Shown here piece after piece: positions 34,167 to 40,147 of a stretch of 64,000 nt of DNA; positions within the stretch are counted from its first letter, which is position 1; each line of letters begins with the position of its first letter. Both the position numbers and the translations under genes were made by a program. The notes beneath the pieces were generated by a model, which worked only from the letters and a program-made list of their open reading frames with translations, ran no database searches and was not told where the DNA came from. This stretch comes from Desulfurococcales archaeon (GTDB lineage: Archaea > Thermoproteota > Thermoprotei_A > Sulfolobales > Desulfurococcaceae), in the NCBI GenBank assembly GCA_027022365.1, contig JALVYU010000026.1, positions 288,001 through 352,000 of the forward strand. The letters run 5' to 3'.

Positions 34167-34752
34167 CTACACCAAACTATACCGTTTTCTTAGAGAAAAA
34201 TGGGGCGCAAAGTCATTGAAGCTGAAAATATTTGGTGGAAAAAATAAGGAGAAGGAAGAACTACCCGAAGACATACGAGCGCTCATTAAACAATATGCTG
34301 AAAGGCATCATATTAATTATCTCCAAGCATTAAAGGAACTCATCCAAAAAGGGCTGAGATATTCTGAGCTTGAAAGACAATACGGCAAAGACGTTGATAG
34401 CAGGGAATTATGGGATAAAAGATTCTATTACCTAAAGATAGAGTCCGGCTACCTATACTATAGGCTTAGATTAAAGGAAGTAATCGATGAATTGAAGACA
34501 CTTGCGATAAGATTCGCGGGAGTACTGGGGAGTCTTGAAACATGCTATAAACAATGTATGAGCTCTGAGGCTCTTGAGGTAGAACTGAAGAAATTAGCTG
34601 ATTTAAAAGAATTTATTCGCTACTATCTTGAAACATACGTTATAACGGTCAATAAAGAACTCGAAGAGAAAAAATATGCAGATGATAAAGAGATAATAAA
34701 ATTCGTCGAAAAAACACTAGAGAAATACAAGAGATATTTTATGAAGGAGTAA
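34150..34752 (+). CDS. hypothetical helical protein (possible N-terminal RHH); true start probably later
   Basis: LPEDIRALIKQYAERHHINYLQALKELIQKGL followed by charged helices. Confidence 0.55.
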   Translation: MGKTFSYTKLYRFLREKWGAKSLKLKIFGGKNKEKEELPEDIRALIKQYAERHHINYLQALKELIQKGLRYSELERQYGKDVDSRELWDKRFYYLKIESGYLYYRLRLKEVIDELKTLAIRFAGVLGSLETCYKQCMSSEALEVELKKLADLKEFIRYYLETYVITVNKELEEKKYADDKEIIKFVEKTLEKYKRYFMKE

Positions 34753-34870
34753 TCCAGTTAAACTAGACAAAGTATGCCTAGTTCATTATGATTAAGAATA
34801 CCTATTTTTATTAGAGAATTTAGACAGACTAATAAGTGGCATCAACAATTCTTTAATGAGGTGGAAGTGA

Positions 34871-35266
34871 ATGTTATCAATGCTGTCATTTTACGCACTA
34901 GGGGTAAACACGACGGGAAACACGACTTCGGCCGCGCTACCTGATTTCATATACTCAGCGTTATCGAACCCTAATGTCGCAATAGCAATTATTATCGAGA
35001 TTGCAATGGGGATAGCGCTAGGCTACGTTATGGCTAAAATGGCGAAATACATCGTCGCATTTATCGCGATTTTAATAATCGGCGCCGTGCTGAACATATG
35101 GAGTCTGGGAGGAAGCATACAGGACTTCCTGACAAAACTAGGAATGACCGCTGCCGAACTTAAGAACGTCATACTCGGGTTCTTGGGAACACTAGGCCTG
35201 CTGATGGTAGGGCCTGTAACGCTGGGGTTCTTAATAGGCATAGTAATCGGATTAATGAAGAAGTAG
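34871..35266 (+). CDS. small membrane protein, FUN14-like
   Basis: MGIALGYVMAKMAKY and C-terminal GFLIGIVIGLMKK; SD GAGGTG. Confidence 0.6.
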   Translation: MLSMLSFYALGVNTTGNTTSAALPDFIYSALSNPNVAIAIIIEIAMGIALGYVMAKMAKYIVAFIAILIIGAVLNIWSLGGSIQDFLTKLGMTAAELKNVILGFLGTLGLLMVGPVTLGFLIGIVIGLMKK

Positions 35267-35356
35267 TTCGCAATATAGTTTTGCTACTTTTTCTACATAA
35301 CAGCTATATTAGCTATTTTATCTTAGAAAGACATTTCTAATACTGGGTGGTCTGAG

Positions 35357-35806
35357 ATGATTAATAAAGAGAAGTTTGAATTCCTTGATCATCCAGCTGA
35401 TGTTTATATAAAAGCATATGGTGCAAGTCTACCGGAACTCTATGAAAACGCGGGGCTAGCATTGTTTGAGACTATGACTGATACTACCCTAGTAGAGCCG
35501 TTGAAAAAGTTTAGTATAGAGGCTGAGGGCTTCGATCTCGAGAACTTGCTATATAGATGGTTAGAGGAGTTGCTCTACGTATATTATAGCCATAATGTGA
35601 TGTGTAGCCGAGTAATAGTAGAAAGGATCGAGATTACAAGGCGGGAGGACTGCTTCATGTACACTATTAAGGGAGCATGTTATGGAGAAGAATTTGATCC
35701 GAGAAAACATGAAGCGCGCGTTGAAGTTAAAGCAGTAACATATCATTTAATGAAAATAATTAAGGACGAAGAGGGGTGGAAAGCCTATTTCGTTCTTGAT
35801 ATATGA
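35357..35806 (+). CDS. archease (cofactor of RtcB tRNA ligase)
   Basis: FEFLDHPADV, EVKAVTYH and C-terminal VLDI. Confidence 0.95.
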   Translation: MINKEKFEFLDHPADVYIKAYGASLPELYENAGLALFETMTDTTLVEPLKKFSIEAEGFDLENLLYRWLEELLYVYYSHNVMCSRVIVERIEITRREDCFMYTIKGACYGEEFDPRKHEARVEVKAVTYHLMKIIKDEEGWKAYFVLDI

Positions 35807-36405
35807 TTATCTATCGAGCTTAAAAACTCGGCTATTTTAACAGAGCATCTTTCACAATAATACATTGTCTTATAATCAACCTCAAAGACAGAGTTGCTGA
35901 AGCTCATAACACATTTAGGATTATTACAGTGCCCGAGACCTAGTAAATGCCCTAATTCATGAAGAATTTCTTTCGTCACGCGCTCGACGTAGAGATCATA
36001 CCTTTTGCCAGCATATTCACTAGCAGAATAAAATATCGGATCAAGCCTTTGAGCGGATACAAAAGCTATGCCTCTAGATGGAGAGGCCTCCCCAAACACG
36101 AAGTTAAGGCCTTCATCATAAGCATCTATGTATCCGACACCAATAACGAAAACACAGCCATCCCTAAGATCCCGAAATATCTCCGCGAGATAATCGAGTA
36201 TACACGGCCCAACATACTGTCTCCTAGACCAATCAAAACAAGACATCGGAAGCTTCAGGACCTCAGGCCATACCTCCACATCAATATACGGCGAAATACT
36301 GCTCAGGACCCCATATACATTCCTACGCCAATCCTCAATAAAATCAAAGACAAAACATCTAGTCAGCGGCACAATCAGTACCCTACTCCTCATTCCAGCC
36401 ATCAC
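35785..36405 (-). CDS. amzA: archaemetzincin (peptidase M54)
   Basis: LNFVFGEA, HELGHLLGLGHC..CVMSFSNS..VD.K...C..C. Confidence 0.93.
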   Translation of the reverse strand: MMAGMRSRVLIVPLTRCFVFDFIEDWRRNVYGVLSSISPYIDVEVWPEVLKLPMSCFDWSRRQYVGPCILDYLAEIFRDLRDGCVFVIGVGYIDAYDEGLNFVFGEASPSRGIAFVSAQRLDPIFYSASEYAGKRYDLYVERVTKEILHELGHLLGLGHCNNPKCVMSFSNSVFEVDYKTMYYCERCSVKIAEFLSSIDNHISRTK

Positions 36406-36467
36406 TTCACATACCTATGTGTAGAATAGTGCCGCCGCGGGGATTTGAACCCCGGACAACCCGGTCT

Positions 36468-37049
36468 TCAGCTTCGCCGGATCACCCGTGCCAGGAGCCA
36501 ATATTTTCTTTTATGGCTACTGCTTATATATTTTATCCACTTTGACACCTGTGCTACCCCATAGATTGCTAGCTTGTACGCCTTATCTGATTTCCGTATA
36601 TGTGAATTAATACCGTAATTTTGCACAAGTATAGATTTTACCTGATAAAGCAAAGCTACGCTTTTGCTTGTGATCTCTATGGTTGGGTACTCTTCTACAT
36701 CAGGCTTCCTAGTATAGAATATTGTTCAGTCAGTATCAAATATCCCCCTAATTAACATATTAACATACTCGTTTTTTACCAATTCCCGCGGAATTGTTAT
36801 TATTGAGCTCTTCTTACCGGTCGGGAATCCTAGTTGTTTAAAGATGTTAAATAATTGTTTTGACTTGAATTCTATTCGGTAGGCTTTTGAACGGTATTTT
36901 ATTTTTGGTCTCTTGCCAATAATTTTTTCTATAAGTCTTGATATATGGAGCGTGTATTCGTAATCTCCTTCAGCTATCGAGAAGAAGTATTTACAGTTTT
37001 TACTATGATATAGTGATCCATCTCCAATCATTATTCCATAGAATTCCAT
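36468..37049 (-). pseudogene. two-motif LAGLIDADG homing endonuclease with in-frame TGA at 36726-36728
   Basis: Motif 1 EFYGIMIGDG; motif 2 LIRGIFDTD*. The frame continues as TIFYTRKPDVEEYPTIEITSKS into ORF 36468..36653. Confidence 0.88.
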
Positions 37050-37138
37050 AAACTCCTTAGTGTTAATTATGCTAGCCGTATTAGAAAAAAGAGAAGAACA
37101 AGTATTAGAGGCAGAAAGGCTCCTGGCACGGGCGTCCA
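36473..37138 (-). mobile_element. 666-nt BHB-type intervening sequence carrying a homing endonuclease gene
   Basis: BHB AG-CGCC-CG^U-GGA / UCC-GGCG-AA^G-CU; 16-bp stem 37118-37133 with 36484-36499; AT-rich interior. Confidence 0.85.
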
Positions 37139-37314
37139 CGGGCGCTCTCCCGGGCTGAGCTACGGCGGCATCGCTTACTAACATATTAATGTTACTGGTT
37201 TATTAGTTTTTATGGAGTGGTCAATTATTTGTACTCCTTTCAACATTTATTATGTATGGCTAGGAATGTCTACGTTAAAGCTATGGGGCTACCTTGTCTT
37301 GGGGGTGATCTTAT

Positions 37315-38022
37315 ATGATGGCTGTGATCCTTGCTGGTGGTTTCGGTAAAAGACTAAGACCTTATACGGAGGAAATACCTAAGCCTCTCGTTAGAGTAGC
37401 CGATAAGCCTATTCTGGAGCACCAAATAGAGTGGCTCAAACAGTATGGGTTCAACGAGTTTGTCCTACTAGTAGGCTACAGAAAAGAAAAGATAATCGAG
37501 CACATCGGTAGCGGCGGTAGATTGGGTGTTAAGGTAACCTATGTTGTGGAGGACGAGCCCCTAGGGACTGGGGGCGCGATAAAAAACGCTGAACACATAC
37601 TCTCCAAGGAGGATAAGTTCCTAGTGATAAATGGAGATATATTGACAAACCTCAACCCTCTAAAGCTATTCGAAAGACTAGAGAATGAGCCGAGACTTGT
37701 AGGTGTCATAGCAAGCATACCACTGCCAAGCCCATACGGAGTACTGGAGATCAAGGACGGAAAAGTCGTAGGCTTCGTCGAGAAACCCAGGCTCCAGGAC
37801 TACTGGATCAACGCAGGAGTATACGCCCTCAGACCAGAAGCGCTGAAATACTTCCCAGAACGCGGCGACCTAGAACGAACAGCGTTCCCAGCAATGGCTA
37901 GAGACGGCGTCCTAGGGGCAGTAAAATACACCGAGATATTTTGGAAGAGCATAGACACATACAAGGACCTCGAAGAAGCAACCAAGATAATAATCAAGAT
38001 GGGCGGTAAAATACAAGGATGA
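37315..38022 (+). CDS. sugar-phosphate nucleotidyltransferase (NDP-sugar synthase family)
   Basis: ILAGGFGKRLRPYT..PKPL, EPLGTGGA, NGDI and FVEKP motifs. Confidence 0.92.
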   Translation: MMAVILAGGFGKRLRPYTEEIPKPLVRVADKPILEHQIEWLKQYGFNEFVLLVGYRKEKIIEHIGSGGRLGVKVTYVVEDEPLGTGGAIKNAEHILSKEDKFLVINGDILTNLNPLKLFERLENEPRLVGVIASIPLPSPYGVLEIKDGKVVGFVEKPRLQDYWINAGVYALRPEALKYFPERGDLERTAFPAMARDGVLGAVKYTEIFWKSIDTYKDLEEATKIIIKMGGKIQG

Positions 38023-38090
38023 TTTTTCAGATTTTCCGGCTATCATCACCGCCCTTCTCGGGCTCAAGAGACCCTCTTATCATCATCAAT
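38023..38090 (-). ncRNA. box C/D 2'-O-methylation guide sRNA
   Basis: C box ATGATGA (38080-86), D' TTGA, hairpin GCCC-GAGAA-GGGC, C' GTGATGA, D CTGA (38027-30); two 12-nt guides. Confidence 0.88.
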
Positions 38091-38150
38091 GATAATACAT
38101 GGGTAAGTAAACCTAAAAACCCCGCCTATAATCCATAAAAACATGGATAC

Positions 38151-38229
38151 GCGGCGGTCGTCTAGCCTGGACTAGGACGCCGGCCCCCCAAGCCGGAGAT
38201 CCCGGGTTCAAATCCCGGCCGCCGCACCA
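38151..38229 (+). tRNA. tRNA-Gly(CCC), CCA encoded
   Basis: Cloverleaf; anticodon arm CCGGC-CCCCCAA-GCCGG; GGTTCAAATCC T-arm. Confidence 0.93.
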
Positions 38230-38364
38230 CTTTTCATCAACAATTGTAGATCTTGTTAGAAAGATATGAAAACATTATCCATTGTTACACAATTTATATT
38301 CTATTCAATACATGGTTTCTTAAAAAGAGAACCTTATGAAGCATTGATGTATCACGTAGAATTA

Positions 38365-38453
38365 TGGCGCCGGGGGCGGGATTCGAACCCGCGCGGGCCC
38401 CGTGGCCCACTGGCTCTCAAGGCCAGCCCCTTAGGCCGCTCGGGCACCCCGGC
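38365..38453 (-). tRNA. tRNA-Ser(TGA), CCA encoded
   Basis: CTGGC-CTTGAGA-GCCAG anticodon arm, long variable arm, discriminator G. Confidence 0.95.
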
Positions 38454-38491
38454 GCCTGTTTATATGGATTTGTTCTCTGGGCTTATATTTG

Positions 38492-39088
38492 CTATTTTCG
38501 TCGGAATATTAGTATTGTGTAGCCTTTCCGGGAGATGTTCTTAACTACTTCTATGTCCTTTCTCGTGTTTAGCTTGCTGATATAGTAGTTTGCCCCTCTT
38601 GCTAAGACGAATTCTGCGTATCCTCCTTTCTTTAGGTGTTCTATGCTTCCAATAATTATTTCTTCGACAATTTCTTTACCAGCTGATATTGGTGGGTTGC
38701 TTATTATCATATCGAATATCATGCCCTTTACGGGCTCGTATACGTTGCCCTGGAGAACCCTGACTCGTTCCTCGACACCATTTAGCCTTACATTATATTT
38801 CGCTATTTTAACGGCGACAGGATTTATATCTACCATGTATATCTGCAACTTAGGATAGGCCTTAGCAAGACTTATTCCTATGACTCCGTACCCGCATCCA
38901 ATATCCAGTACTGTGCCCTCCTCAACGATTATGGCGTGTTCGAGCAACAGTTTTGTGCCTAGATCTACCTTGTTGCCTGAGAATAGGCTAGAATAAGTGA
39001 CAAATTCTAGTGTAACCCCCTTATAGACGAACGAAATAACCTGTTTCTTCCCCAGCCTATATTTGTTGGGCCTAAAATAATGTGTCAT
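38492..39088 (-). CDS. class I SAM-dependent methyltransferase (RsmC/MTS-like)
   Basis: LFS..KVDLGTKLL, LDIGCGYGVIG and SNPP motifs. Confidence 0.9.
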   Translation of the reverse strand: MTHYFRPNKYRLGKKQVISFVYKGVTLEFVTYSSLFSGNKVDLGTKLLLEHAIIVEEGTVLDIGCGYGVIGISLAKAYPKLQIYMVDINPVAVKIAKYNVRLNGVEERVRVLQGNVYEPVKGMIFDMIISNPPISAGKEIVEEIIIGSIEHLKKGGYAEFVLARGANYYISKLNTRKDIEVVKNISRKGYTILIFRRK

Positions 39089-40147
39089 TTATTCTTCCTC
39101 CAGACAGGCGGATACACGCCCGTCTTCATGTAGACCCGTTTGGTCTTCACTACTATTCCTTTCTTCATCCTAGCAATTTCTTCTGCGCTTTTGAGAGCTT
39201 GACCTAGCGCGACAAGTTCTCCTTTGAGCGTGAGGATCGCCACGAGCTTTCCAGGCTGTACATCCTTGGTCAGTCTCACGATGCCTGGGACAGCGAGGTT
39301 GGCGCCATGGGCTATTGCGTCTACAGCCGTATCACGTATCATTATCTTTGGTATATGGACTATCGCTGTTTCCACGGGTAGCACCACTTTACGTAGATAT
39401 CTCTCATCCCCTTCATTCCTCCAGAGATACAATGCCTCGCTTACCTCCTGCATTCTAACAAGTGTCTCGTCTTCCCGGTAGGGCCCTGTTCTCGTTCTGC
39501 GGAGCTCCCTCATATGGGCCCCCACGCCCAGCAATAGGCCTAGATCATGGGCTAGTTTACGCATATATGTGCCAGCCTCACAAAGGACTCTCAACAAGAC
39601 ATATCTCTCATTATGCTCAAGTATTTCGAGCTCATAGATTGTTCTCTTACGTATAGTTCTCTTAACACTCGATCTGAGAGGCGGCTTCTGATATATTGTT
39701 CCTTTGAAATTCTCTAGTGCTTCAACAAGCTCCTTATCTCCGACATCGCCGTGAAGCTGAACCACCATTACATATTCTTTGACGGTATGTATTACATTAC
39801 CTATTACTTTAGTAGCATTAGCTAGGGCCACAGGTAGTACGCCGGTCACCTTGGGGTTTCCCCGCCCCAGCCCCTCAAGGCTAGGGCTCTAGGGTACCCC
39901 CGTGACCAGCGCGTTCTAGCCCGAACATTTTCTTAATCCAAGCTACTACCTCATGACTCGTAGGACCTGGTGGTTTATCGAGATTAATCACTCCATTCCT
40001 TATATGTTCCTCGATTTTCCTCTCGTACGGGAGGATACCGTAATCGGGCGATGTATCATCTTCTCTAAGCACTATCCATTCGTTCTTGAATCCAGCATGT
40101 GTTGTTATCTTGTCTATGAAGATAAGCCCTTTTTCAGCGAGACCCAT
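39085..40147 (-). CDS. cbf5: H/ACA pseudouridine synthase Cbf5, spliced (exons 40147-39889 and 39857-39085; 343 aa)
   Basis: LDKPPGPTSHEV and GHGGTL[D]PKVTG, restored on intron removal; YQKPP, GTYMR, PUA domain. Confidence 0.95.
39858..39888 (-). other. 31-nt BHB pre-mRNA intron in the catalytic Asp codon of cbf5
   Basis: CCCU-AG^A / GGGG-AA^A junction with a 9-bp inner stem GCCCUAGCC/GGCUGGGGC; removal restores the frame and the GAC codon. Confidence 0.92.

Follow-up and report, generated by a model that had tools for sequence, protein, structure and literature searches.

The only tRNA-Phe(GAA) gene of this Desulfurococcales archaeon appears to house a mobile intron that encodes a LAGLIDADG homing endonuclease and that carries a terminator-like T-tract and a BRE/TATA-like element, both placed as in a split tRNA. 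These two signals are probably by-products of the endonuclease element and do not prove that the tRNA is produced as two separate pieces. The explanation that we favor, with some reserve and on the grounds of sequence comparison, is a cis-spliced mobile intron with which both signals arrived. The locus lies in the window analyzed, a stretch of 64,000 nt (positions 288,001 to 352,000 of contig JALVYU010000026.1), where promoter-like sites were scored with a PSSM trained on the regions upstream of 45 tRNAs in this genome. Its parts, read from the sequence together with the tools given, are as follows.

37169-36430, minus strand: tRNA-Phe(GAA) gene (ARAGORN with introns allowed)
37211-37196, minus strand: the gene's BRE/TATA promoter (PSSM 11.8 bits, the best sense-strand score in 37260-36380), ending 27 nt upstream of the mature 5' end
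37169-37139, minus strand: exon 1, tRNA positions 1-30, identical or near-identical in relatives
37138-36473, minus strand: intron of 666 nt, inserted at 30/31 (ARAGORN with introns allowed)
36472-36430, minus strand: exon 2, tRNA positions 31-76, anticodon GAA (ARAGORN with introns allowed)
35785-36405, minus strand: archaemetzincin (Peptidase_M54) gene, about 25 nt past the tRNA 3' end

With introns allowed, ARAGORN finds 46 tRNAs in the 1.74-Mb genome (99.97% complete), and only one of them is a tRNA-Phe. The gene is missed by ARAGORN in its default mode, without introns, and by Rfam, which picks up exon 2 fragments alone and below threshold; removal of the 666 nt leaves a complete 74-nt tRNA-Phe(GAA) sequence. 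Given that this is the genome's only tRNA-Phe, the gene must be functional, and a pseudogene reading of the locus was discarded for the same reason. Between the tRNA 3' end and the archaemetzincin start (36405-36430) there is neither a T-run nor a TATA-like site, and from exon 2 to that start no site scores above 4.3 bits. Since signals between the two genes are lacking and their order is kept across relatives, archaemetzincin is probably co-transcribed with the tRNA as a tRNA-mRNA. On the other side of the locus, a C/D-box sRNA-like sequence was found on the minus strand at 38025-38090, between a nucleotidyl-transferase gene and tRNA-Gly; it scores 25.6 bits with Rfam sR20 and 19.8 bits with sR3, both below the gathering scores.

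The features at the borders and in the interior of the intron are the following.

37144-37135, minus strand: 5' strand of the bulge-helix-bulge junction, made of CGCC (37144-37141), the bulge CG^U (37140-37138, cut after 37139) and GGA (37137-37135)
36481-36473, minus strand: 3' strand of the junction, made of UCC (36481-36479), GGCG (36478-36475) and the bulge AA^G (36474-36472, cut after 36473)
37134-37118, minus strand: 5' arm, 17 nt, pairing with 36499-36483 (MFE folds)
36499-36483, minus strand: 3' arm, 17 nt, pairing with 37134-37118
37101-37083, minus strand: pyrimidine/T tract TTGTTCTTCTCTTTTTTCT, terminator-like, with T6 at 37090-37085
37049-36468, minus strand: LAGLIDADG homing endonuclease ORF, 193 codons (translation; Pfam)
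36537-36520, minus strand: BRE/TATA-like element, GATAAAA followed by TATATAAG (36537-36523; TATA 36530-36523), PSSM 11.2 bits at 36535-36520

In the junction, CGCC pairs with GGCG in a central helix of 4 bp flanked by the two 3-nt bulges, and a cut after the second nucleotide of either bulge falls exactly on an exon border. The outer exon helix has only 2-3 bp, and the junction is therefore of the relaxed bulge-helix-bulge form. On the intron side it runs on into GGA:UCC (3 bp) and then into the 17-bp arm, which is formed in the MFE folds of all four long introns folded and whose pairing is kept across ten lineages, with changes at two positions (G.U, A:U or G:C, and C:G or U:A). Introns at the tRNA-Phe 30/31 site, long or short, end in GGCGAA, with the variants GGCGAC in G020 and GGCGAG in G029. 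The genome encodes splicing-endonuclease subunits (two PF01974 ORFs, 104.5 and 40.6 bits) as well as RtcB (two PF01139 ORFs).

Under the favored explanation, a LAGLIDADG-bearing archaeal bulge-helix-bulge intron would have invaded the sole tRNA-Phe gene at 30/31. The promoter at 37211-37196 would then give one precursor of about 750 nt, in which the 17+3 bp arms would bring the two 3-nt bulges together; a two-subunit splicing endonuclease would cut after 37139 and 36473, and RtcB would join the exons. The released intron RNA would be, or would formerly have been, the messenger of the endonuclease. Some spliceable half-transcripts may arise through leakage at the T-tract and the TATA-like element, but the tRNA would not depend on them.

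The endonuclease itself matches Pfam LAGLIDADG_3 (4.6e-10) and LAGLIDADG_2 (6.2e-9), and has two motifs, FYGIMIGDG and IRGIFDTD(G), in a single chain about 190 aa long. A structure search returned an intein domain as the best solved relative, with a weak match (E=3.6e-4). The final stop TGA of the ORF coincides with U33-G34-A35 of exon 2. In the window copy the frame is interrupted by an in-frame TGA at 36728-36726, where the second motif would have its Gly. G005, of the same genus and 95% identical in DNA over 2.2 kb, has GGA at this codon and an intact ORF; among DNA contigs, TGA is found in run X1, possibly the source sample, and in run X3, and GGA in runs X4 and X10. These four belong to 16 runs matching 34500-39500 of the window, among which no RNA run was listed. 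Given the GGA in G005 and the TGA/GGA polymorphism among runs, the loss of the endonuclease is real and very recent: as far as these sequences tell, the window strain has just lost it through GGA>TGA.

Several further properties of the reading frame were observed. In 8 of 10 lineages the endonuclease frame stays open as far back as the 5' splice site (37138-36468 in the window), and in three intact copies (L023, L052, L053) it continues to the UGA of U33-G34-A35 in exon 2, the ORF thus taking up the entire intron. A complete start and stop are present in the unspliced precursor only, where G30 plus UG makes GUG. Circularization of the excised intron would create an in-frame A|UG in 9 of 10 lineages; the intact introns with a frame across this junction are multiples of 3 (654, 648 and 651 nt), and the circle would therefore hold an endless frame. 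The stretch GGUGAUCC, complementary to the 16S 3' end, precedes the A|UG junction codon by 5 nt in this genome, G005, G176 and L053. A second LAGLIDADG ORF (L041, G000:C7:505-1038) lies outside the window, at the start of its contig and some 870 nt before the 3' end of the 16S rRNA; its open frame of 225 aa is 28% identical to the tRNA-Phe one, and it probably belongs to a 16S rRNA intron that encodes an endonuclease.

All 12 loci retrieved with the endonuclease family are tRNA-Phe 30/31 introns. Their lengths in ten distinct lineages are 666, 662, 633, 670, 654, 527, 648, 651, 666 and 377 nt. The ORF is intact in four of these lineages (G005, G176, L052 and L053), the remainder having stops, frameshifts or internal deletions; two such deletions, of 142 and 293 nt (L049/L057), are nested, with a common right border, and leave introns of 527 and 377 nt. 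A relic of about 159 nt in G029 still holds C-terminal codons of the endonuclease. Its exons lie on two contig ends, as they might in a split tRNA-Phe, a reading that was rejected because the ends overlap by 17 nt and thus close up into the relic intron. In seven other genomes the same site has short introns of 28-84 nt, which must be spliced in cis because they leave no room for a promoter, and in seven genomes, including G001 of the same genus, tRNA-Phe has no intron. At this one site the sizes hence run from 670-633 nt (with endonuclease) through 527, 377, about 159, 84 and 28-43 nt to 0, as expected of a homing-endonuclease intron that passes through invasion, decay, deletion and loss. The insert would accordingly be classed as a mobile element, for which homing, the cutting of the intron-less allele, is predicted. 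As a separate observation, vent metagenome runs X1, X3 and X10 contain contigs that join exon 1 to exon 2 with an exact skip of 666 nt, the exons being identical in several related genera, any of which may be their owner.

This distribution bears on whether the tRNA could be an obligate split tRNA, with no functional read-through and an interior that is mere spacer. Such a reading can point to the T-tract and TATA signals and to an endonuclease that is dead in this strain. However, both exons are still contiguous in 10/10 lineages, and sister copies with the same signals have an intact endonuclease; moreover, nearly identical strains differ in whether they have the nonsense change, which leaves no time for a switch to obligate splitting. 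We therefore consider this reading very improbable.

The original prediction placed the T-tract at 37101-37083 on the minus strand, after a 5' arm of 16 nt (37133-37118), and GATAAAA with TATA at 36530-36523, that is, at -31 to -24 from the G at 36499 that begins the 3' arm (36499-36484). Both placements are exact in the sequence. The internal site scores 11.2 bits, compared to 11.8 for the gene's own promoter and a median of 12.0 for the tRNA promoters, and these two are the top sense-strand scores in 37260-36380, the own promoter first. It ends 20-21 nt before the 3' arm, which predicts a start at about G 36499. The claim of split-tRNA-like signals was borne out: they match the strength of the genome's own tRNA promoters and trailers, and their layout, with a TATA, about 21 nt, a GC-rich arm and then the bulge-helix-bulge junction, is like that of a published split tRNA.

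It had also been cautioned that either signal may be due to chance. Sites of at least 11 bits occur at 337 of 3,483,186 genome positions, compared to 281-327 in local shuffles, with 115 of the 337 within sense ORFs; the genome counts equal the shuffle expectation, and the PSSM is therefore without positive predictive value. Dinucleotide shuffles of the AT-rich intron interior give a site of at least 11 bits anywhere in 1050/5000 cases, while one located 14-26 nt upstream of the arm appears in only 25/5000, the latter range having been chosen post hoc with the site already seen. Taken alone, the score thus says little, the unusual part being the placement.

A probable origin of the internal element lies in the frame that it shares with the endonuclease. 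It corresponds to the codons for W-I-K-Y-I-S, within a motif, W-[IV]-K-[YF]-I-[SN]-S-S-H, that is conserved in all members of the family and still recognizable as W-[LY]-[KE]-x-I-G-x-S-N in homologues at 34-39% identity. AT-rich codons for this motif produce a BRE followed by a TATA, and the spacing to the arm is set by the ORF, which continues across the arm to its stop in exon 2. The TATA-like site is at the same place in 9/10 lineages, including all four with intact endonucleases (G005 11.2, G176 9.0, L052 9.2 and L053 9.2 bits). Dead copies are divided. The score is kept in the window copy (11.2 bits), G003 (10.9) and L049/L057 (11.3), whereas 3 of the 6 independent dead lineages have degraded sites (G002 3.7, L056 7.5 and G029 5.7 bits). 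With kept and degraded sites equally represented, the element is not consistently maintained once the coding constraint is gone. Furthermore, synonymous sites show no significant extra constraint, with 3/7 invariant codons in the TATA stretch versus 14/87 elsewhere (p=0.11), a comparison in which 7 codons are testable.

If the internal site is active, it could mainly drive archaemetzincin, with exon 2 carried along, as the 666-nt insertion would have cost this gene its close link to the tRNA promoter. The short distance from the tRNA to the gene start, the lack of any better site between exon 2 and that start, and the gene order kept in relatives speak for it. Nevertheless, the promoter activity of the site is putative, and G002 and L056 keep the gene order in spite of their degraded sites. 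This reading, which is compatible with the others and does not exclude them, appears improbable to us.

The T-tract has 18/19 pyrimidines and contains the sole run of at least four T on the sense strand of the intron. By comparison, the 46 tRNA trailers of the genome reach at most 16/19 pyrimidines, and 6 of them contain a run of at least five T; in 20000 random 45-mers, a rough estimate as contigs were weighted equally, 18/19 pyrimidines were found in 0.5% and at least five T in 8.5%. Since its pyrimidine density exceeds that of any of the trailers, some termination at the T-tract is plausible. The open frame that extends from the 5' splice site also covers the tract. After the arm, this genome has T6, G005 has T4, and G003, G002 and L053 have T5, while 5 of 10 lineages have no run of at least four T. 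Strain X4 has the T6 together with an intact GGA codon, and in L053, which is intact, the T5 lies within the ORF open from the splice site. From these sequences, the T-tract is a lineage-specific feature of a variable leader.

It had been proposed that both signals were gained after decay of the endonuclease. Against this speaks, for the TATA-like element, that it is a conserved coding motif, present in 4/4 intact relatives (9.0-11.2 bits), and, for the T-tract, the T6 beside an intact GGA in X4 and the T5 in the open frame of L053. Given the coding origin of the one and the occurrence of the other alongside intact copies, neither signal seems to have been gained in this way.

A dual mode of expression, in which many transcripts stop at the T-tract, a second start is used at about 36499, and the resulting halves are trans-spliced alongside some cis-spliced read-through, as described for the Aeropyrum pernix tRNA-Asp (the INTERMEDIATE reading), has to be weighed against the favored one. 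The internal site is in the class of the gene's own promoter, would put a transcription start on the arm's first base, and has a placement reached in 25/5000 shuffles; the T-tract is denser in pyrimidines than every trailer; and a high TATA score persists in dead G003 and, despite the deletions of 142 and 293 nt, in L049/L057. [quoted passage not shown] The hypothetical tRNA-Phe halves would also anneal favorably, with a ddG of -26.0 kcal/mol at 85 C compared to -20.1 for the G023 halves, and trans-splicing of adjacent halves has an experimental precedent, by Northern and RT-PCR, in the tRNA-Asp of Aeropyrum pernix (PMC3218864). If RNA polymerase stops at T6 and starts at the internal site, spliceable halves will exist. 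However, the promoter-like site is accounted for by coding and is present also in intact, presumably cis-spliced copies; it is degraded in half of the independent dead lineages, and sites of its score occur genome-wide at chance frequency. The T-tract, for its part, is missing in half of the lineages and is found with intact endonuclease copies, and an efficient terminator would block expression of the endonuclease from the tRNA promoter. On balance, we regard the dual mode as possible but rather unlikely, and retain the cis-spliced mobile intron as the preferred explanation.

The tRNA-Lys of Staphylothermus had been put forward as a precedent for adjacent, recently split halves joined near 30/31. 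The joint is indeed at 30/31, whereas the halves lie about 4.5-4.8 kb apart according to the positions given in PMC3218864. No endonuclease relic was found beside a known split tRNA, the tRNA-Lys of G023: the endonuclease protein has no match at E<=1e-5 in G023 or G101, and the G023 halves are separated by genes for TBP, a phosphoesterase and an M48 peptidase, among others. At 650-850 nt from the G023 5' half, tblastn gives a weak match, which was dismissed as a relic because it lies inside a DUF2070 membrane-protein gene.

The origin of split tRNA genes has long been debated, the two views being that they are relics of tRNAs assembled from halves or recent products of disrupted genes. To our knowledge, an adjacent-half intermediate has been demonstrated experimentally only for the Aeropyrum tRNA-Asp, and its origin is not known. 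At this locus, signals like those of a split tRNA are already well placed within a mobile intron that codes for an endonuclease and interrupts an essential single-copy tRNA gene, and the decay series in relatives, taken together with these signals, makes an intron-to-split route testable. We tentatively suggest, as a doubtful extension of the sequence comparisons, that this intron family carries a ready-made BRE/TATA in its conserved C-terminal codons, about 21 nt before the 3' arm, and a pyrimidine-rich leader past the 5' arm, that each invasion of a tRNA gene would therefore deliver split-tRNA parts, and that halves are made and trans-spliced alongside the precursor here; if true, this would be a concrete route from a mobile intron to a split tRNA.

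Were splicing purely in cis, this bulge-helix-bulge intron with its endonuclease gene would still stand out among tRNA introns by its length: archaeal tRNA introns were given as 11-129 nt in 2011 (PMC3218864), and the tRNA-Phe intron is about five times longer than this maximum. A full-text literature search, covering main texts and few subscription journals, found no bulge-helix-bulge intron that codes for an endonuclease in a tRNA gene of archaea, and the term 'homing endonuclease' is absent from the tRNA-intron reviews PMC4090602 and PMC4033280.

Three known systems invite comparison. Bulge-helix-bulge introns that code for endonucleases are familiar from archaeal rRNA genes, an example being the Desulfurococcus mobilis 23S intron with I-DmoI. 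Introns of this type resemble the one in tRNA-Phe in their 600-700 nt, long basal helix and monomeric two-motif LAGLIDADG ORF, in cis-splicing by the tRNA splicing enzymes, which is probable for the tRNA-Phe intron, and in their patchy occurrence among close relatives. They differ in host: the tRNA-Phe intron sits in a tRNA gene, and its ORF fills the intron with the stop codon in the anticodon loop. No sequence match of the endonuclease to I-DmoI was found. Bulge-helix-bulge introns are described as often containing homing endonuclease genes, and 39 of the 39 reported group I introns noted in the same source are in rRNA genes (PMC6125680).

[quoted passage not shown] Unlike the hypothetical tRNA-Phe halves, its halves are in permuted order and kilobases apart, with ordinary genes between them (PMC3218864).

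[quoted passage not shown] Its authors called it a possible evolutionary intermediate, so that the intron-to-split idea is already in print (PMC3218864). In the same report, the adjacent halves belong to the tRNA-Asp of both Aeropyrum and Thermosphaera, and their joint is at 37/38. In Aeropyrum, as at the tRNA-Phe locus, the halves lie on one strand and resemble one gene with a long intron; the BRE/TATA, or in tRNA-Phe the BRE/TATA-like element, lies inside this 'intron' and would give a start about 20-25 nt before its 3' end, and a complementary GC-rich leader and trailer adjoin a bulge-helix-bulge junction (PMC3218864). The differences are equally clear: the tRNA-Phe locus, known from sequence alone, has a 666-nt spacer with an endonuclease gene and a joint at 30/31, whereas the Aeropyrum tRNA-Asp is described as having a 121-nt spacer with no ORF, a joint at 37/38 and two transcripts detected by Northern and RT-PCR (PMC3218864).
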